A DNA stretch of 64,000 nt. Source: an uncultured delta proteobacterium. Its GTDB lineage: Bacteria; Desulfobacterota; Desulfomonilia; UBA1062. The position numbers and the translations under genes were made by a program. The stretch spans positions 480,001 to 544,000 of the forward strand of contig CAWAUM010000005.1 in NCBI GenBank assembly GCA_963785235.1. The letters are read 5' to 3'. The notes beneath the pieces are model-generated. The model was not told the origin of the DNA. It ran no database searches and saw only the letters and a list, made by a program, of their open reading frames with translations. Positions within the stretch are counted from its first letter, which is position 1. Each line of letters begins with the position of its first letter. Below, piece by piece: positions 54,326-64,000 of this stretch.

Positions 54326-55040
54326 ATGAGAGCGAAAAATATTGGATTCTTGTTGAAGGGCATTCTCTCCATAATGTCCGGTTTCTTTGTGTTCTTGATA
54401 GCCGCTTCTACACCGTCCTTTGCAGCTACCCAGTGGAACGTGGGGGTTTCCGGAGGAGATGAAGGCATTCGTTCCTTCCGACTTTCCATTGGTGAATATT
54501 ATCATGTCCCGGAAAGAGAGGTTGTTGTTGTTCATAAACGGGGAATTCATGAAGAAGAGCTGCCGGTGATTTTCTTTATTGCAAAAAGGGCCCATGTATC
54601 GCCCGAGGCCGTTGTCAGGCTCCGCCTGAGAGGCATGAACTGGATGGACATAACCTTTCACTACGGCTTGAGCCCTGAAATATACTATGTCCCTCTCAGG
54701 CAGGGTCATCCCTATGGGAATGCCTATGGTCATTACAAAAGACATCCGAGGGGTGGATGGCACAGAGGCGACCTCAGGGATGCGGATATCGTGAATCAGG
54801 TAAACCTTAAGTTCATATCAGAGCATCACAGATATGCCCCTGAACAGGTCATGAAATACCGGTCTGAGGGAAAAAGCTTTATCGACTATTGACCGTGATG
54901 TTAGACAAGGAAAACAGGGAAAGACCCGTGGCCAGGGCCGGCAAGCGGACAAGCCCGGTGATTACTGGCAAAATGATAACAACCAAAACGACAACAAGAA
55001 TCAAGGGAAAGGCCATGGCAAGGGTAATGGGAATACGTGA
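54326..55040 (+). CDS. Exported hypothetical protein with GHPYGNAYGH motif and Gly/Lys/Asn-rich tail, frameshift near 54885
   Basis: AGGAG RBS and signal peptide ending SFA. After the frameshift it reads TIDRDVRQGKQ...NQGKGHGKGNGNT*. Confidence 0.65.
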
Positions 55041-55146
55041 GATAATAACTGATTATACCTGTGGTTCCCTGTATCAATAGGTACAGATTTAATTTTGTTT
55101 GCTTCTCCTCTCCTGATACCTTAGGGTTAACCTCAGGAGGAAGAAC

Positions 55147-55428
55147 ATGGTTACAGCTATCATCATTTTGAAGGTTGCCCGAGAACGCATCAATGGTACG
55201 GCACAGGAACTCTCAGACATTGAGGGCATTTCGGAGGTATTTTCCGTGAGCGGCCGTTATGATCTGATAGCCATTGCCAGGGTAAAGGACAATGATGAGC
55301 TCTCAGAACTCGTAACAGTAAAGATGCGCAAGGTTGAGGGGATAACCGAGTCCGAAACCATGCTTGCCTTCCGGGCATATTCAAGGCATGACCTCGAAGG
55401 CATGTTTTCTGTGGGTTTCGAGGAGTAA
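55147..55428 (+). CDS. Stand-alone Lrp/AsnC ligand-binding domain protein
   Basis: EVFSVSGRYDLIAIARV...GITESET; no HTH; AGGAGG RBS. Confidence 0.88.
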   Translation: MVTAIIILKVARERINGTAQELSDIEGISEVFSVSGRYDLIAIARVKDNDELSELVTVKMRKVEGITESETMLAFRAYSRHDLEGMFSVGFEE

Positions 55429-55445
55429 CAAAACCCTATCGATAA

Positions 55446-55471
55446 TCAAGGGTATCACTCTGATACCCTGA
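55446..55471. terminator. Hairpin after the Lrp-like gene
   Basis: agggtatca-ctc-tgataccct; no strong U-tract. Confidence 0.45.
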
Positions 55472-55615
55472 CGCTATTCTTTCGCTGCATATTAAGGCCG
55501 CTGTGTGTTCTCTCCGGATAGGTCCATGGCAAACCATCATCTGTCAATCTATCCTCTTCTGATCATTCCTGTCAGGACGACCTGTTAAGCTTTTTGCATA
55601 TCACCCGAAAAATAT

Positions 55616-56557
55616 ATGAATAGTATGGATAACAAATCAGACATAACCTATCCATCCAGGGTGATCTTCCGGGCCTTCCTGATCCTTCTCACATGCATAT
55701 TTATTGAGTGCGTCAGCTCAGGCCAGTCACTTGCGGGGGATAAGATATTGAGATACCGCATCGACTCTGTTGACACACGTTTCACTCTAAGCCGTAAGGA
55801 AATCTCGGACGCAGTTCATCAGGCGGTTTTCTTATGGGAAAAGGCTGTCGGTCATACTATCTTCAAGGAAGACCCCCAGGGCGATATCAGAATAGACTTT
55901 GTATATGATAAGCGGCAGGCAGTCACGGATAGTTTAAAAATAATAAGCGAGGACATTGATGATGCAAAGTCGTCATATAATAAACTCATGTCCCGGTATG
56001 ATGATATATTAGTTGTGGTTGAGAAAAAAAAAGGTGCCTATATATCAGACAATAATTCATACCTGACAGCTCTCAATGATTACCAGACCGAGATTGATGC
56101 TGCCAATAATAAGGCCTTTGTTTCCAGGGATGAATTCCAGCGGTTTCAGAAGAAAAAACATTGCCTCGACGTTCAGCTTGTTGCGCTCCAGGTGAAGCGC
56201 TCCGACCTGCAGAGAACAGTGGATGAACTCAACGATATGGTGGCTGTTATCGGCAAAATAGCCTCCAATCACAATTCACAGGTAATAAACTATAAAAATA
56301 CGCGCAAGGACCTCAGTGGTGAATTCGATGCGGGTCGATATGAAATGAATATCTACGGTGAAAAAAGCATCACGATATTCCATGTCAAGGACCGTGAAAA
56401 GCTGGTGAGGGCTTTGGCACATGAACTCGGACATGCCCAGGGGCTTAAGCACAGTAAAAACCCTGACTCTATCATGTACTATCTGAATCGTTCCGATTCC
56501 ATAAGACTGTTGCCCGAAGATATCCTTGCCATGCAGGCGCGGTGCAGCAGCAACTGA
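55616..56557 (+). CDS. Matrixin (M10)-family zinc metalloprotease with internal coiled coil
   Basis: HELGHAQGLKH zinc motif, SIMY Met-turn, N-terminal hydrophobic segment. Confidence 0.85.
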   Translation: MNSMDNKSDITYPSRVIFRAFLILLTCIFIECVSSGQSLAGDKILRYRIDSVDTRFTLSRKEISDAVHQAVFLWEKAVGHTIFKEDPQGDIRIDFVYDKRQAVTDSLKIISEDIDDAKSSYNKLMSRYDDILVVVEKKKGAYISDNNSYLTALNDYQTEIDAANNKAFVSRDEFQRFQKKKHCLDVQLVALQVKRSDLQRTVDELNDMVAVIGKIASNHNSQVINYKNTRKDLSGEFDAGRYEMNIYGEKSITIFHVKDREKLVRALAHELGHAQGLKHSKNPDSIMYYLNRSDSIRLLPEDILAMQARCSSN

Positions 56558-56799
56558 GACAGGTACCTATTCTTTGGTATAATCCATCAGGAAGTATCTA
56601 TACATTTTCATGTTAAGGGTTGTGCATAAGCCTAAATAATAATACCTCCATTCAAACGTTTCATTCAACACCTTAAACATTCCATCGAATGAATCATGGT
56701 TTTTCTCTGTTCCTATCGGGTCCACAGGTGAACTGCAATTCAGTTAATAGTCTATATTAACAATATGATGAAGGTTAATATGTGCTCGTGCTGCAGAAT

Positions 56800-56814
56800 T
56801 GGCACGATGGTTGC
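56800..56814 (+). promoter_or_regulatory. sigma54 -24/-12 promoter, cassette A
   Basis: TGGCACG-ATGG-TTGC, exact consensus spacing, 42 bp upstream of ATG 56857. Confidence 0.85.
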
Positions 56815-56856
56815 GTTATAGATAAGCATACAGAAAATCAAAGAGGAGGTCAGACA

Positions 56857-57132
56857 ATGAAAAAGACAATCCAGACAATAATCGTTGCAATGTTCGTGGT
56901 AATGATCACCGGTACCTTTGCCTTTGCAGCAGCAGCAACCTCCGGCGGAAACAGCTTCCCCTACTTCCACCTTGGATGCCTGATCATGGGCGGACTCACC
57001 ATCATCTCCATGAAGTACCGCTATGAGAAGATATACCTCAGCGAGGCAGTGGGATCTTTCGCTCTGTATGCAGTGTTGGTAGCTCTGTTCACCGCACCGG
57101 TCATCGAAGCAGTTAAAGGCATGATCAGCTGA
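56857..57132 (+). CDS. Small membrane protein (signal peptide + 2 TM), unknown family
   Basis: GAGGAGG RBS; MKKTIQ...TFAFA signal; paralog of 57997-58173. Confidence 0.8.
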   Translation: MKKTIQTIIVAMFVVMITGTFAFAAAATSGGNSFPYFHLGCLIMGGLTIISMKYRYEKIYLSEAVGSFALYAVLVALFTAPVIEAVKGMIS

Positions 57133-57164
57133 GAAGATTATCAATAAAAAAAGGAGGAGAGGCC

Positions 57165-57428
57165 ATGAAAAGGGTACGAAGAAACAGACTCCAGACCAAG
57201 ACGCTGAATCAGATCATCATGCTGAGCGCATGGAGCTTCACCCTGGTTATCTCCTCGTTCCTGTTCCTGTTCGCAGGCCGGTGGATCGATGTGAAGTTCA
57301 ATACGGAACCGACCTTCATGCTTGGACTGTTTGTGCTGGGCATGGGATTGTGCTTTGCACGGATGTTCACGGACTACACAAAGGCCAAAGATGAGTTGAA
57401 CAACCGCAGGGTCAGATACCAGTCCTAG
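57165..57428 (+). CDS. AtpZ/AtpI (ATPase gene1)-like two-TM protein
   Basis: AGGAGG RBS; GRWIDVKFNTEPTF hairpin motif typical of ATPase_gene1. Confidence 0.75.
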   Translation: MKRVRRNRLQTKTLNQIIMLSAWSFTLVISSFLFLFAGRWIDVKFNTEPTFMLGLFVLGMGLCFARMFTDYTKAKDELNNRRVRYQS

Positions 57429-57477
57429 TCGATACTCAAGAAAGCCGGGTTACAATCCGGCAGCCTACATCACGAAT

Positions 57478-57510
57478 GCGGGTCGCCCTCAAGGCGGCCC
57501 GTTGCTTCTC
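57478..57510 (+). terminator. Terminator-like hairpin of cassette A
   Basis: gcgggtcgcc-ctcaa-ggcggcccgt then tgcttct. Confidence 0.6.
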
Positions 57511-57529
57511 GCAGGATAATCAGTTGAAT

Positions 57530-57557
57530 AAAAAAACACGACCCTTTCGGGGCCGTG
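57530..57557 (-). terminator. Rho-independent terminator of cassette B
   Basis: Minus strand CACGGCCC-CGAAA-GGGTCGTG-TTTTTTT. Confidence 0.8.
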
Positions 57558-57609
57558 GTGTGTGATATGGATCGTTCCCGGGGAGGAAGTTCGCTGGAGG
57601 CCTGTTCGA

Positions 57610-57714
57610 TTACCGGATCTGCGCTGCCCTGGCAGCATGCCCTGCGCGTTTCACGAACCGTGCAGTCAGGGCCAGGAATGCTGTGAAGCCGATAGTTACA
57701 AAGATGACTGTCAT
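57610..57714 (-). CDS. Putative 34-aa single-TM peptide
   Basis: MTVIFVTIGFTAFLALTARFVKRAGHAARAAQIR; ATG 2 nt after the upstream stop, AGAGGG RBS, inside the terminator-bounded transcript. Confidence 0.45.
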   Translation of the reverse strand: MTVIFVTIGFTAFLALTARFVKRAGHAARAAQIR

Positions 57715-57716
57715 GG

Positions 57717-57956
57717 CTATGCCCTCTTTACCTTTCTCTCTATCACGACCTCTTCGATGAACCCCTTGAAGCCCAGTGCTATGCCGGCCACCAGTCCTAC
57801 CATCGTGAAGTTGGGTGCCATGCCGAGAACCCTGTCCAGATACATGCCGCCGTAGAGTCCGAGGAAGGTCATCATAACGAGCACCAGGCTGTATGCGCTT
57901 ATCCTGCTGAGCCTGTTGGCCAGTGCCTTTTCGATCTTTTCTTTCTTTGTCTTCAT
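57717..57956 (-). CDS. AtpZ/AtpI (ATPase gene1)-like two-TM protein
   Basis: AAGGAGG RBS; GMYLDRVLGMAPNF motif; paralog of 57165-57428. Confidence 0.75.
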   Translation of the reverse strand: MKTKKEKIEKALANRLSRISAYSLVLVMMTFLGLYGGMYLDRVLGMAPNFTMVGLVAGIALGFKGFIEEVVIERKVKRA

Positions 57957-57996
57957 GGCCTTCCTCCTTATCCTTTTTATCTCTATGAGTCCTGCC

Positions 57997-58173
57997 TTAG
58001 AACAGGCTCATGAGGATCTCGCGTGCCGGGCCGGTGTTGATGGTTACCAGGGCGACCACCAGGACGAATACCGCGCTTGCTTCTACCGGGGTGAGTCCCA
58101 ATACCTTGTAGGTGAACCTGATCCCTATGCCGGTCATGAACAGTGCGCCGATTACGATCCATAATGTCATCAT
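57997..58173 (-). CDS. 58-aa two-TM membrane protein (below ORF-track cutoff), unknown family
   Basis: MMTLWIVIGALFMTGIGIRFTYKVLGLTPVEASAVFVLVVALVTINTGPAREILMSLF; AGGAGG RBS; aligns with the C-terminal part of 56857-57132. Confidence 0.8.
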   Translation of the reverse strand: MMTLWIVIGALFMTGIGIRFTYKVLGLTPVEASAVFVLVVALVTINTGPAREILMSLF

Positions 58174-58220
58174 TGTCTTGCCCTCCTGGGGTTTGTTTTT
58201 TTCTTTCTAGCTTATATAAG

Positions 58221-58235
58221 GCAAGGGGCGTGCCA
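58221..58235 (-). promoter_or_regulatory. sigma54 -24/-12 promoter, cassette B
   Basis: Minus strand TGGCACG-CCCC-TTGC, 47 bp upstream of ATG 58173. Confidence 0.85.
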
Positions 58236-58250
58236 GGTTCTGATAATTTA

Positions 58251-58394
58251 TAACTTAATGATATTATTTATTTATTAAATTATGACCTTTCCTTAGATTG
58301 CCATTTTGGCATAAAAGTCTTCTGTCAGAACATGTGCAGGTACAAAATGACAAAATAACCTCAGGGACACCCCTAAATTTGCCAGAATGGCAAA
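58251..58394. promoter_or_regulatory. IHF-like site and palindromic enhancer (UAS) candidates for cassette B
   Basis: TATCATTAAGTTA (minus, 58251-58263) followed by an AT tract; TGCCA-TTT-TGGCA (58299-58311), GTACA-AAA-TGACA (58340-58352), TTTGCCA-GAA-TGGCAAA (58378-58394). Confidence 0.6.
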
Positions 58395-58675
58395 GTTGAG
58401 GGTGACTCTCTGCGACGATGAGAGACAGACAAACTGACCTTTCCTTCCCAGTATTAATAAGCACCTGAAGTGAGCTTCTAAACTCATTTTGAAATGGATC
58501 ATACGGAAAAGAGAAAGGTTATTGGTATTGTCTGTAGTCTGAACACCCTGGATCTTGACTTAATCAAATTTAGCCCTAGTATAGTAGGACTATGCTAATC
58601 CTTATTGAAAGGCTGATCCCTTTAGGTTTGGATCGGCCTTTCTCCATTAATTGCCCTAAAATCTTCTCCCTCGTT

Positions 58676-58761
58676 AAAAAAAGACCGGACCGTATTGACA
58701 CAGTCCGGCGTAAAGGAGGTCAGAATCCCTACGCGGCAAGGATGCCGAGTAGGGCTGAACT
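58676..58761 (-). ncRNA. Candidate small regulatory RNA with anti-Shine-Dalgarno seed
   Basis: TTGCAT-16-TATAAT promoter (58795-58768), 5' hairpin, single-stranded ACCUCCUUUA, 11-bp terminator stem plus U7; no ORF. Confidence 0.6.
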
Positions 58762-59074
58762 TAGTTTATTATAAAGGCAGCCAGGAGTAATGCAACCACC
58801 TTCGGCTAGATATTATTTCAAGTGAAGATTTATCGCTGGTATATTTAGTCAGTACCAACGCCCAATTCTCATCTAAGCCTATTGATTCCAGTCCTTGCTA
58901 TTTTTATACTATAATTATTAATTTTGTTGATTCATTGCTTCCGGAATTACCACTTTTCCTCATCATTTGTTACGCATTGAAAATGTGATTGTGGTGACGT
59001 ATAAAAAACTCTCTGAGAACATGTCACTAGAAAGACATCTTAGAGGATGATCATTTTATCCTGCGAAAGAAGGA

Positions 59075-61156
59075 TTGAGTAGAATGCCCAGTGCGCACGA
59101 ATTCCTCACTACGCTAGCCATGGTCCTCTGTGTGGCTGCTGTGACCACAGTGGTTTTCCAGCGCTTGCGCCAGCCTGTGGTACTCGGCTACATACTCGCA
59201 GGGCTCATTGTCGGCCCGAATGTGCCAAGTCCACTCGTCGCCGATAGCGCTATTATCCGGATCCTTTCTGAGACCGGCGTTATACTGCTTATGTTTTCAT
59301 TGGGACTTGAGTTCAGCCTGCGCAAGCTTGTACAGGTCGGCCCCTCGACTATTCTCACGGCGGTTATAGAAACGAGCATCATGGTCTGGCTCGGTTATAT
59401 CGCCGGTCAGGCCTTCGGCTGGACCCAGAATGAGAGTGTCTTTGCCGGATTCATAGTCGCTATATCCAGCACAACGATCATTGCAAAGGCTTTCGAAGAA
59501 CAGAACATCAAGGGGAGACTGCATGAGTTTGTAGTCGGAATCCTCATCGTCGAGGACCTGATTGCCATACTCTTGATGGCTATTCTCACAGCGCTTTCAA
59601 CGGGCGATGGCCTGTCGTCGGCCACTATTGTCCATTCGGGCGGCAGACTCGTAGCCTTCCTGGTCGGCCTGGTCGTGGTCGGATTGCTTATAATCCCCCG
59701 TCTTGTCCGTACTATCATTCGTTTACAGCGTGCGGAGACAACCTTGGTAGCCAGCATCGGAATCTGCTTCGCGATTGCCCTTATCGCGCGCGAGTTCGGC
59801 TACTCGACAGCTCTCGGAGCCTTCATTGCAGGCTCCCTTGTCGCCGAGTCCGGAGAGGGAAAGCACGTCGAGCATCTTGTCCTCCCGGTTCGCGATATGT
59901 TTGTCGCCATCTTCTTTGTGTCGGTGGGTATGCTCATCGACCCATCTATCATCTTGCAGCGCTGGCCCGAGGTTGCCGTCTTCACTGTGGTTGTGATCCT
60001 GGGTAAGGTAAGCGGGGTAACGTTGGGGGCCTTCTTCACCGGAAATGGAATACGGACTTCGGTACGGACAGGCATGAGCCTCGCTCAGATCGGCGAGTTC
60101 TCGTTCATCATTGCCGGGCTGGGGATCTCGTTGAAGGCCACGGGGGACTTCCTCTACACGATTGCGGTCGCCGTGTCTGCGCTCACAACGCTCACAACGC
60201 CATGGCTCATTCGAGCAGGTGATCCCGCAGCCCGTTTCATCGACCGCAAGCTGCCTCGACCTTTCCAGACCTTTGCGGCACTTTACGGGAGTTGGATCGA
60301 GAACATGTGGACATCGCCTCAGGACAGGACCAAAGGAAGGGTAGTAAGAAGGCTGGTGAAGTTGCTGATGCTCGACAGCGTGCTGCTCTCTGTGCTTGTA
60401 ATCGGGGCAGCGGTTTCCATGGACACCATTGCAAATGTCGCTGTCATCAGGTTGGGCCTCTCGGATGTGGTCGTCCGGCTGATGTTCGTATTGATAGTGC
60501 TGGGACTCGCTCTCCCTTTTATCATCGGTGTTATCAGAATCGCTCGAGGTCTTGGCCTCTCATTGGCGTTATTAGCTCTACCCGAGGCCGGCGAGGGTAA
60601 AGTCGATCTGGCTGATGCCCCACGGCGGGCATTTGTGGTCATGCTGCAACTGGCAATCGTACTGGTTGTAGGGCTTCCGCTGCTTGCCTTGACCCAGCCA
60701 TTCCTTCCGCGATGGATCCCTGCCTCGACGATTGGCGTGCTCATTATCTTCCTGGGTGTGATGCTCTGGCGTAATGCCACGAACCTTCAAGGACACATCC
60801 ATGCTGGAGCGGAGCTTGTTGTTGAGGCCCTGGCAAAACAAGCGCACAAGAAGTCTTCCGTATCAGGCCAGAAATCGCTCATGGAGATCAAGCATCTTCT
60901 TCCCGGTCTGGGTGAACCTGTTTCCCTTCGGCTCAATGAACGCAGTTTTGCTGTTGGCAAGACCCTGGCCCAGCTTAATGTTCGCGGTTTGACCGGGGCG
61001 TCCGTACTGGCAATAGTACGTGGAGAGGAGAATGTCATAATGCCGAGTGCTACTGAGCATCTCCGCGTGGGTGACATGTTGGCTCTTGTAGGTACGCGCG
61101 AGGCGGTCAACGCCGCAACCGTTCTCCTGAATAAAGGTCAACAGGAGATTTCATAG
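59075..61156 (+). CDS. CPA2-family cation:proton antiporter with C-terminal TrkA-C (RCK_C) domain
   Basis: QPVVLGYILAG, FSLGLEFS, ISSTTII, LIVEDL, GAFIAG, FFVSVG, QIGEFSF; GKTLAQLNVRGLTGASVLAIVRG. Confidence 0.92.
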   Translation: MSRMPSAHEFLTTLAMVLCVAAVTTVVFQRLRQPVVLGYILAGLIVGPNVPSPLVADSAIIRILSETGVILLMFSLGLEFSLRKLVQVGPSTILTAVIETSIMVWLGYIAGQAFGWTQNESVFAGFIVAISSTTIIAKAFEEQNIKGRLHEFVVGILIVEDLIAILLMAILTALSTGDGLSSATIVHSGGRLVAFLVGLVVVGLLIIPRLVRTIIRLQRAETTLVASIGICFAIALIAREFGYSTALGAFIAGSLVAESGEGKHVEHLVLPVRDMFVAIFFVSVGMLIDPSIILQRWPEVAVFTVVVILGKVSGVTLGAFFTGNGIRTSVRTGMSLAQIGEFSFIIAGLGISLKATGDFLYTIAVAVSALTTLTTPWLIRAGDPAARFIDRKLPRPFQTFAALYGSWIENMWTSPQDRTKGRVVRRLVKLLMLDSVLLSVLVIGAAVSMDTIANVAVIRLGLSDVVVRLMFVLIVLGLALPFIIGVIRIARGLGLSLALLALPEAGEGKVDLADAPRRAFVVMLQLAIVLVVGLPLLALTQPFLPRWIPASTIGVLIIFLGVMLWRNATNLQGHIHAGAELVVEALAKQAHKKSSVSGQKSLMEIKHLLPGLGEPVSLRLNERSFAVGKTLAQLNVRGLTGASVLAIVRGEENVIMPSATEHLRVGDMLALVGTREAVNAATVLLNKGQQEIS

Positions 61157-63282: not shown

Positions 63283-63480
63283 ATATGAGGAAACCTGTTG
63301 ATGCAACAGTTATAGGAGTTTTCCACAAAACCATCAATTTAGGCAACTCGTTGGTTATGGAACATAATCTCTGTCTGCGTGTGTGGAGATGAAACCGATG
63401 ATTTTATTGCATTATCTACACTAAAGCTAATATGAAGAGTACTGTTCATAATCTACGGTGTCCAGGCATATTAAAACTGA

Positions 63481-64000
63481 CGCCGATCGGATGGACCGTT
63501 CATCGTGGTGGACTGCACGACTATTCCGGAGAACCTTGTGGAGAGTGAGCTGTTCGGTTATGAGAAGGGTGCCTTCACCGGGGCTGACAGGCAGAAGCTC
63601 GGGCGTGTCGAGCTGGCGCATGAAGGGACTCTTTTCCTCGATGAGATCGTGGAGCTTCATCTCAATCTCCAGACAAAGCTCCTCAAGACCCTGGAGGAGA
63701 AGACCTTTGTCAGGATAGGCGGGGGACTTACCATCAGATCTGATTTCCGTCTCCTCGCAGCCACAAACCGGAACCTGAGGGACGAGGTGGCTTCAGGCCG
63801 TTTCCGGGAAGACCTCTACTACCGTCTCAATGTCTTCCCCCTATCCATGCCGCCGCTGAGGGAACGTGAAGATGACATCCTTGAGCTGGCGAGGTATTTT
63901 GTTGAGCTCTATGCAAGGAAGTATGGCAGGACCGGTCTTGAACTTTCCCGGAAAGACCAGCGCATACTGATGAGCTATGCCTGGCCCGGCAATGTTAGGG
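63481..64000 (+). pseudogene. N-terminally truncated sigma54-dependent activator (AAA+ domain), runs off the window
   Basis: GPFIVVDC...[15 protein letters not shown]...GTLFLDEI...[11 protein letters not shown]...WPGNVR; in-frame TGA at 63478-63480 and no Walker A upstream. Confidence 0.8.

Follow-up and report, generated by a model that had tools for sequence, protein, structure and literature searches.

The stretch of DNA analysed here (the window) comprises 64,000 nucleotides of an uncultured delta proteobacterium (Desulfobacterota; Desulfomonilia; UBA1062; assembly GCA_963785235.1, contig CAWAUM010000005.1, positions 480,001 to 544,000). Near its right end it carries two convergent mini-operons, cassettes A and B, each of which encodes a small hairpin-type membrane protein (A1 and B1) followed by a protein of the AtpZ/AtpQ family PF09527 (A2 and B2). 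Judging from sequence comparisons, both belong to a family of cassettes for small membrane proteins that are self-contained, sigma54-dependent and present in repeated copies. The original prediction, which was made from the letters of the window, had described two facing sigma54 mini-operons with orphan PF09527 genes, and they are present where it had placed them; the ribosome-site and start strings that it gave are also found in the sequence as written. The features of the locus are the following.

56651-58395: repeat unit of 1.75 kb, cassettes A and B in convergent orientation, from the putative upstream activator site of A to the distal one of B
56654-56699, plus strand: putative upstream activator site of A, two AAC[GA]TTTC[AT]TT-like repeats at a spacing of about 21 bp
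56800-56814, plus strand: sigma54-type promoter of cassette A, exact match to TGGCACG-N4-TTGC (TGGCACGATGGTTGC)
56857-57132, plus strand: A1, 91 amino acids, with invariant LGC, SEA and TAP motifs
57165-57428, plus strand: A2, 87 amino acids, PF09527 (AtpZ/AtpQ family), 38.0 bits
57444-57461 and about 57480-57500, plus strand: two hairpins 3' of A2 with a weak T-run, a possible terminator of A
57537-57557, minus strand: intrinsic terminator of cassette B, an 8-bp stem with six G-C pairs, then TTTTTTT
57610-57714, minus strand: B3, open reading frame (ORF) of 34 amino acids, one hydrophobic helix
57717-57956, minus strand: B2, 79 amino acids, PF09527 (AtpZ/AtpQ family), 39.4 bits
57997-58173, minus strand: B1, helical hairpin of 58 amino acids, with invariant W5, R19, E31, N46, P49 and R51
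58221-58235, minus strand: sigma54-type promoter of cassette B, exact match to TGGCACG-N4-TTGC (TGGCACGCCCCTTGC)
58248-58266, minus strand: IHF-like site of ATCA-N5-TTA type, between the activator sites and the promoter
58299-58392: upstream palindromes of B, TGCCA-N3-TGGCA, one at 58299, one at 58380, plus a degenerate copy at 58340-58352

A2 and B2 are each about 80 amino acids long and have two hydrophobic stretches. Both pass the hidden Markov model check against PF09527 that had been proposed for them (38.0 and 39.4 bits at a gathering cut-off of 26.6), and they share 27% identity across 62 residues (E 2e-10). An invariant Asp stands at the end of helix 1 in the alignment of B2. No Pfam or NCBIfam model matched A1, B1 or B3. 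A1 has a signal-peptide-like N-terminal helix followed by a two-helix hairpin, as seen in its sequence and in an AlphaFold2 (AF2) model with helices at residues 2-28, 35-55 and 61-90 (predicted local distance difference test, pLDDT, 68); the MKK start, the hydrophobic stretch and an A-x-A pattern suggest that this start is a cleaved signal peptide. B1 is modelled as a hairpin of helices 2-25 and 29-57 (pLDDT 90), and a Foldseek search of this model against the PDB returned four matches, all with E above 8 and none meaningful. Complex prediction for B1 and B2, each supplied as an alignment, gave a score of 0.00 against a mark of 0.32, in a run made without controls. Cassette B had been described as consisting of B1, B2 and a terminator; these three stand, and the description had overlooked a third ORF, B3, which starts 2 bases past the stop of B2 and was aligned from 16 distinct sequences. 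The first hairpin stem 3' of A2 (57444-57461) turned up in the stem listing on the minus strand. In a database protein of 93 residues (P0130), the first 38 residues of a B1 are fused in frame to roughly the last 55 residues of a B2; a natural deletion may have produced this chimera, or it may be an artefact of assembly.

The genome to which the window belongs (G000, a 3.9-Mb assembly, 93% complete; its contigs are denoted by C and a number) encodes 15 PF09527 proteins, seven of them in B cassettes, five in A cassettes, and one each in the F-type operon (atpZ-atpI-atpB, C1:341 kb), in the N-ATPase operon (atpQ-atpR-atpB, C7:26 kb) and in a lone paralogue of 83 amino acids (C5:569532-569783), which has the top PF09527 score of the genome (63.5 bits). 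Among 150 other sampled genomes of the phylum, 145 have a PF09527 match, mostly one. The locus had been presented as a single special pair of cassettes; instead, the genome contains 12 copies of what is a repeated family. By blastn within the genome, the convergent A/B unit is present three times at 87-92% identity, the copies outside the window being C11:126890-128632 (92.2% over 1747 columns) and C2:265621-267376 (87.3% over 1765 columns), and there are solo copies as well, four more of B and two of A. Five of the seven B1 copies are identical. Similarity between the units stops exactly at the outer activator sites and at the terminator, the terminator of cassette B being the left end of the B-only copies, and no inverted repeats, target duplications or transposase were seen at the unit ends inspected. 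The neighbours of the other copies are mutually unrelated (among them an amidase, a PAS hybrid kinase, a P-type ATPase, PhoH, a catalase-peroxidase and UvrD). As had been claimed, the PF09527 genes of both cassettes lie outside any atp operon, according to the window and to the whole-genome scan: no atp gene is near cassettes A and B in the window, and PF00137 (ATP-synthase c subunit) has no match within it, the four of the genome lying on contigs C1, C2 and C7. The lone PF09527 gene on C5 is close in sequence to the F-type AtpZ and has no adjoining hairpin gene.

At no more than one mismatch the window contains three sigma54 matches, a number reached by 10 of 100 shuffled sequences, and the promoter count of the window alone is not significant. 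We regard the cassette promoters as more than chance because a sigma54-like element is conserved upstream of B1 and A1 in other genomes: it precedes 24 of 24 B1 genes there, and the pattern TGG[CT]A[CT]-N5-NN[GT]C precedes 62 of 79 A1 genes compared with 5 of 274 control windows. Twelve of the 17 A1 genes missed by this pattern were listed, and all of those carry TGGCA[CT]G-N4-TT[CT]C; the -24 element is therefore near universal. The -12 element across A1 relatives reads TTGC, TTTC or TTCC, and many have T or C at -13. In this genome, 11 of the 34 strict sigma54 promoter matches are cassette promoters, and the twelfth cassette promoter has a GTGC variant at -12. The assignment of the promoters to the sigma54 type, made at the outset, is upheld by their conservation and by the presence of rpoN (C11:186555-187031) and of activators in the genome.

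Upstream of these promoters, the activator block of A recurs in the copies of this genome and across families, with AACGTTTC in 40 of 80 A1 upstream regions (the chance expectation being about 0.007 per region, by our own arithmetic from length alone). The B promoters of this genome carry two TGCCA-N3-TGGCA palindromes, a degenerate third one and an IHF-like site. Elsewhere, 6 of 16 B promoters contain one or two palindromes of this type, compared with 1 of 57 control windows. The IHF-like site, a tentative assignment, is found at all seven B copies of this genome and, by pattern, at 6 of 16 B promoters of other genomes. The blocks of A and B in this genome differ from each other. For the proposal that the two versions are interchangeable or antagonistic we found no evidence; the differing upstream sites suggest only that cassettes A and B may answer to different activators. 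Contig C6 also has a perfect TTGCCAGAATGGCAA, but this one falls within a gene, and we put it down to chance.

The genome has 34 matches to the sigma54 activator domain PF00158. Of 79 A1 loci, 12 have an ORF for an activator upstream of A1 in the same orientation, and most of these ORFs end just before A1. Ten of the twelve belong to one orthologous group (72-96% identity) and stand directly upstream (10 of 79 loci); four of these ten were scanned with Pfam, and all four have the REC-AAA+-HTH_8 architecture of the NtrC type. The orthologue in this genome is located at C2:190435-191814 and is preceded by a kinase of 854 amino acids (C2:187804-190368) that contains PAS, HisKA and HATPase domains and, matched below the cut-off, a periplasmic Cache domain. 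The remaining two activators are orthologous to a regulator that this genome encodes two genes upstream of the B copy at C2:37 kb.

The distribution of the cassettes in relatives is narrow for B and wider for A. B1 is present in 21 of the 24 other family genomes and in none of 16 from the sister family, and a B1 profile matched five of six genomes of the family plus one further among 400 other sampled genomes of the phylum. A collection of 5.8 billion proteins contains 223 relatives of B1; the 120 that were listed have no Pfam family, and every name given is 'hypothetical protein'. Searching 1.84 billion representatives with the B1 profile gave 16 proteins at E <=0.001, namely 14 family members or fragments, one B1/B2 chimera and one spurious repeat protein; at that database size, no c subunit was among them. 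A1 occurs, with G000 included in both counts, in 33 of 52 genomes of the family and in 16 of 401 genomes of the phylum, the latter from five families with one to seven matches each; species representatives hold 246 confirmed A1 loci, under titles of Desulfomonilia, Syntrophales, Syntrophaceae and Smithella. Convergent A/B pairing, as read from coordinates, is seen in seven genomes of this genus, in one of them decayed, and one further locus is divergent; none was found in the other genera listed, and A and B also occur singly.

Gene linkage within the cassettes was counted for 24 distinct B1 genes of other genomes (two too near a locus end were skipped), of which 20 are followed by B2 and 22 have B3. 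A PF09527-like gene stands directly downstream of 47 of 81 A1 genes. Conservation of the pairing and of the sigma54 motif in other genomes had been named beforehand as a test, and both are conserved there (47 of 81 and 20 of 24 for the pairing, 24 of 24 for the motif upstream of B1). In several families, A1 stands alone between promoter and terminator. Loci L151-L158 and L163-L167, from other families, are of this solo type, with a TGGCAC-N5-TTTCA promoter and an intrinsic terminator, and one genome among them (G242) has up to seven A1 matches, six of them near full length. At another locus (L144; G147:C6, about 164917-165409), a 64-residue A1/B1-like hairpin lacking a signal peptide is followed by a PF09527 gene in an A+T-rich region where no sigma54 element was seen; to go by this locus, the module may also exist with another promoter type.

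A phylogeny of 24 B cassettes (FastTree, midpoint root; 3 of 20 fetched loci, in which the start-motif pattern matched no B1, were dropped) contains at least three old B lineages retained across species. Five near-identical copies of this genome cluster together, which is consistent with either recent amplification or concerted evolution.

In order to place A1 and B1 relative to other proteins we ranked all 42,357 ORFs of at least 45 amino acids of this genome, unfiltered, by profile search. The B1 profile put its own copies at ranks 1-7, A1 copies at ranks 9-12 and 14, and c subunits at ranks 8, 13 and 15, after which the matches drop to E above 1; the fourth c subunit has rank 22. Profiles of A1 placed their own copies at ranks 1-5 and all seven B1 copies within the top 15-20, and a c-subunit profile built from 27 sequences ranked the four c subunits 1-4 and six B1 copies 5-10. 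With one reversed and four column-shuffled B1 profiles, c subunits never came above rank 372 and A1 never above rank 185. A1 and B1 are probably related: they are reciprocal next-best families, and hhalign of one against the other gave 67% (E 5e-5). Together with the similarity of A2 and B2 (E 2e-10), this agrees with the relationship of the two cassettes that had been proposed.

A relationship of B1 to the c subunit of ATP synthase is a lead, to which we give an even chance at best. Against 177,635 PDB sequences, the B1 profile had only two matches at E <=10, and both are c subunits (Yarrowia subunit 9, E 0.03; Acetobacterium c1, E 0.44). Helix 2 of B1 aligns with helix 2 of the c subunit, Glu included: E31 of B1 and the invariant E63 of A1 fall on the c-subunit Glu, and in the alignments the distance from this Glu to the C-terminal Pro is 18 in B1, A1 and the c subunit alike. 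A number of results weigh against the relationship. hhalign of B1 against the c subunit gave 19-28%, and PF00137 matches neither A1 nor B1 at E <=10, its whole-genome scan at E <=0.01 returning the four true c subunits only. Single B1-c matches score 13-16 bits, and chance matches of the reversed profile reach 13.4; equally weak B1 matches fall on TRAP permeases of DctM type in other genomes (five proteins of TRAP size were matched, and the three that were scanned are all of DctM type). The A1 profile had no match at E <=10 among the PDB sequences and places a c subunit no higher than rank 23. Protein-atlas look-ups with B1 and A1 found only unnamed clusters of their own kind. In the AF2 models the Glu lies 2-3 residues past the turn, near the cytoplasmic face, and the c-subunit Glu is mid-membrane. 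We call the link between A1 and B1 probable and the link to the c subunit only a lead because the ranks are set against the low hhalign values, the miss by PF00137, the chance and TRAP matches and the position of the Glu. The TRAP matches at L061, L067 and L069 place B1 profile positions 6-43 on a helix pair of fused DctM permeases of 665-687 amino acids (E 0.003-0.01 per genome).

Whether cassettes go together with a higher number of c-subunit genes was also considered. All 16 A1-positive genomes have two to nine PF00137 matches, but many A1-negative families reach the same numbers; moreover, a match does not equal a gene copy, and related genomes are not independent. Genomes of this family have 3-12 such matches and those of the sister family one or two, and the lineage retains F-type and N-type ATPases together with extra c-subunit genes. 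Two orphan c-subunit genes of this genome, at C2:183269-185079 (L101) and C1:729292-731143 (L102), match PF00137 at 62.6 and 56.6 bits, and both have signal-peptide-like starts. Each is followed by a membrane protein of about 430 amino acids with a Cache match and no output domain (54.2 bits at L101; 37.9 bits at L102, which is under the Pfam cut-off of 45). At the C2 locus there is a match to the sigma54 promoter (C2:185079), and 2.7 kb away is the kinase/NtrC-type pair orthologous to the one next to A1 elsewhere.

Contigs from RNA libraries fall on A1, A2, B2 and B1 in four of four metatranscriptome runs from three studies, at an identity of at least 85%; DNA carry-over is possible. One contig of 569 nt spans 57601-58164 (B3, B2 and B1), and others cross the junction of B2 and B1. 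Such contigs show neither starts, strands nor levels. No contig of the four runs falls on 56600-56847, 57468-57591 or 58212-58450, and nothing is drawn from these gaps.

Around the cassettes, the window encodes a matrixin-like peptidase and a member of the Na+/H+ exchanger family with a TrkA-C domain, the latter 0.9 kb from the cassettes. At the end of the window, some 5 kb away from cassette B, a PF00158 match (63469-63843, plus strand) contains two in-frame stops, perhaps because an activator gene is broken there or because two frames are involved. A small RNA (sRNA) candidate at 58676-58822 on the minus strand consists of a hairpin, a linker (UUCUGACCUCCUUUA) with complementarity to the ribosome site of A1 (AGGAGGTCAGA), and a T-run terminator. 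A second copy of the sRNA candidate is present at C5:564764-564911 (81% identity by blastn). An Rfam scan of 55000-60000 gave no match at E <=1.

What the analysis shows is the gene content, copy number, conservation of promoters and upstream sites, adjacency of regulators to A1, PF09527 membership of A2 and B2 and the hairpin fold of B1; a signal chain, protein-protein binding, oligomerisation and any effect on ions or on ATP synthase are inferred. Our tentative reading, which we hold at slightly less than an even chance, is that the cassettes encode a proteolipid-like hairpin which is made on induction, is aided by an AtpZ-type helper and affects the ion or energy balance of the membrane. 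A sensor kinase (for A, the orthologue of C2:187804-190368) would phosphorylate an NtrC-type response regulator, which would bind the upstream sites (in A the tandem AACGTTTCATTCAA-like repeats, in B the palindromes TGCCA-N3-TGGCA) and open the sigma54 promoter; a burst of the hairpin protein A1 or B1 would follow, which we suppose because of the many near-identical cassette copies. The co-transcribed A2 or B2 would be the membrane partner or assembly helper of the hairpin, as AtpI- or AtpZ-type proteins would be for the c subunit, and B3 would join the complex in cassette B. Elsewhere, PF09527 proteins are encoded next to c subunits and AtpI or AtpR within atp operons, and AtpI is reported to aid c-ring assembly (Dibrova et al., PMC2881411). 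The product might be an abundant oligomeric proteolipid-like assembly that alters ion permeability (H+, Na+ or Mg2+) or the assembly of the ATP-synthase rotor, so that membrane energetics would be tuned in bacteria living near the thermodynamic limit. The ion channel or ATP-synthase modulator suggested at the outset is likewise conjecture.

Besides the doubts about the c-subunit relationship, three observations speak against this reading. No AtpZ-like gene stands directly 3' of 34 of the 81 A1 genes, often in other families, and the helper is therefore not obligatory in cis. The A-type regulator adjoins no A cassette in this genome. The regulator near the B copy at C2:37 kb, a candidate B activator, is syntenic within the genus only. 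A more specific version would have A1 and B1 be shortened descendants of the c subunit that have lost the F1-binding loop, are made in bulk on a two-component signal together with an AtpZ-type helper, and are either built into c-rings or assembled into separate rings next to subunit a, thereby uncoupling, braking or re-gearing the ion flow through Fo. We consider this decidedly unlikely; if true, it would amount to a regulated 'clutch' for ATP synthase in syntrophs that live on minimal energy quanta.

The PF09527 membership of A2 and B2 could also be taken to mean that the cassettes encode an inducible divalent-cation channel, in which the PF09527 protein would be the Mg2+ or Ca2+ pathway and the hairpin an accessory or gating part, with no role in ATP synthase. 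In Bacillus pseudofirmus OF4, AtpZ is reported to aid Mg2+ acquisition, and a link to mitochondrial calcium uniporters has been suggested (PMC4453477); AtpQ-type genes are not confined to atp operons, according to Dibrova et al. (PMC2881411). The invariant Asp at the end of helix 1 of B2 and the Na+/H+ exchanger family gene 0.9 kb away in the window would fit as well. However, the constant and amplified part of the cassettes is the hairpin, since a PF09527 gene is absent directly downstream of 34 of 81 A1 genes and B2 from 4 of 24 B cassettes, and the neighbours of the other copies are unrelated to ion transport; we regard such a channel as unlikely. By analogy with the sigma54-dependent phage-shock (Psp) small membrane proteins, the hairpins might instead be effectors of membrane or envelope stress, made in bulk to stabilise or seal a damaged membrane, their likeness to atp proteins being due to ancestry or chance. 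Consistent with this are the sigma54 promoter, its activator sites and IHF-like site, the very small size, hydrophobicity and many copies of the proteins, and the lack of fixed genomic neighbours. It leaves the PF09527 linkage unexplained, though, and the only match among Psp family models is that of PspM at E 2.2; moreover, the A1-adjacent regulator has a receiver domain, which PspF is not known to have. An account of this kind seems to us rather improbable.

Near-identical copies at unrelated sites, five of which cluster in the tree, could also point to a selfish repeat, either a mobile one or one of type I toxin-antitoxin-like hydrophobic toxins for which the sRNA candidate, 0.4 kb from cassette B and complementary to the A1 ribosome site, would be the antidote. 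The unit ends, however, have no transposase, inverted repeats or target duplications, and there are two sRNA copies only for 12 cassettes. Conservation of the proteins is strong across five families, and the C10-type B lineage keeps stable orthologous positions in different species. The dedicated enhancer-dependent promoter with an adjacent two-component regulator and the signal-peptide-like start of A1 speak against such an element too. This explanation we think very improbable. Desulfomonilia and Syntrophales (e.g. Smithella), key syntrophs of methanogenic sediments and digesters, have to manage their membrane energy at the thermodynamic limit. In such genomes an unnamed gene family reaches up to a dozen copies, and it accounts for about one third of the best sigma54 matches of this genome. 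One firm family assignment and one weak resemblance connect it with accessory and rotor parts of ATP synthase. For PF09527, a widespread family of unsettled function, the cassettes add a second setting that is simpler for experiments, since units of two or three genes can be expressed and assayed by themselves.

In line with the expectation that the module was uncharacterised, no description of it was found in the literature searched (supplements not covered), and all database names read 'hypothetical'. Of the known systems with which it can be compared, the nearest is the AtpZ/AtpQ family itself. A2 and B2 pass the family cut-off and adjoin a small hairpin protein, and canonical members exist in this genome as well, namely in the F-type (atpZ-atpI-atpB) and the N-type (atpQ-atpR-atpB) operon. 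In contrast to those members, A2 and B2 lie outside atp operons, are under sigma54-type promoters, exist in 12 copies and follow a hairpin gene rather than heading an operon. We take the position in an atp operon as typical of PF09527 but not as defining, because atpQ is not confined to such operons according to Dibrova et al. (PMC2881411).

The pair formed by the c subunit and an AtpI-type helper offers a second comparison. Shared with it are the hairpin, the equal spacing of the carboxylate and the C-terminal Pro in B1, the reciprocal next-best ranks, the N-terminal signal-like segment that A1 has in common with the c subunits of this genome, and the pairing of a hairpin with a small protein of the atp-accessory type. 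Unlike the c subunit, B1 is about 20-25 residues shorter, lacks the extended R-N/Q-P loop and has its Glu beside the turn in the model. In the c subunit, the cytoplasmic loop with R-N/Q-P contacts the stalk of F1; the loop of B1 reads G-L-T, with R19 seven residues before it, and that of A1 has the consensus R-Y-P, the copy in the window reading R-Y-E.

PspG, PspB and PspC under PspF and sigma54, as these are generally known, resemble the cassettes in being tiny membrane proteins with enhancer-dependent promoters and an IHF-like site. The cassettes have no sequence relation to them (among Psp family models, NCBIfam PspM matched B1 at E 2.2 and nothing matched the others, and Pfam gave none), and the A1-adjacent regulator is of the NtrC type with a kinase. 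To our knowledge, the multi-copy organisation of the cassettes has no counterpart among Psp systems. NtrC-type sigma54 promoters, as commonly understood, share GG at -24, GC at -12, two or three phased upstream sites near positions -90 to -180 with an IHF-like site before the promoter, and a REC-AAA+-HTH_8 activator. The cassettes differ from these in that the -12 element reads TTTC or TTCC, in place of TTGC, in most other families, and in that their regulon seems to be made up largely of copies of a single tiny operon. A2 and B2 are members of the known family PF09527, and A1, B1 and B3 belong to no described family; what sets the module apart from the systems above is the combination of a sigma54 promoter, an NtrC-type regulator, a hairpin gene with an optional AtpZ-like gene, and many copies.

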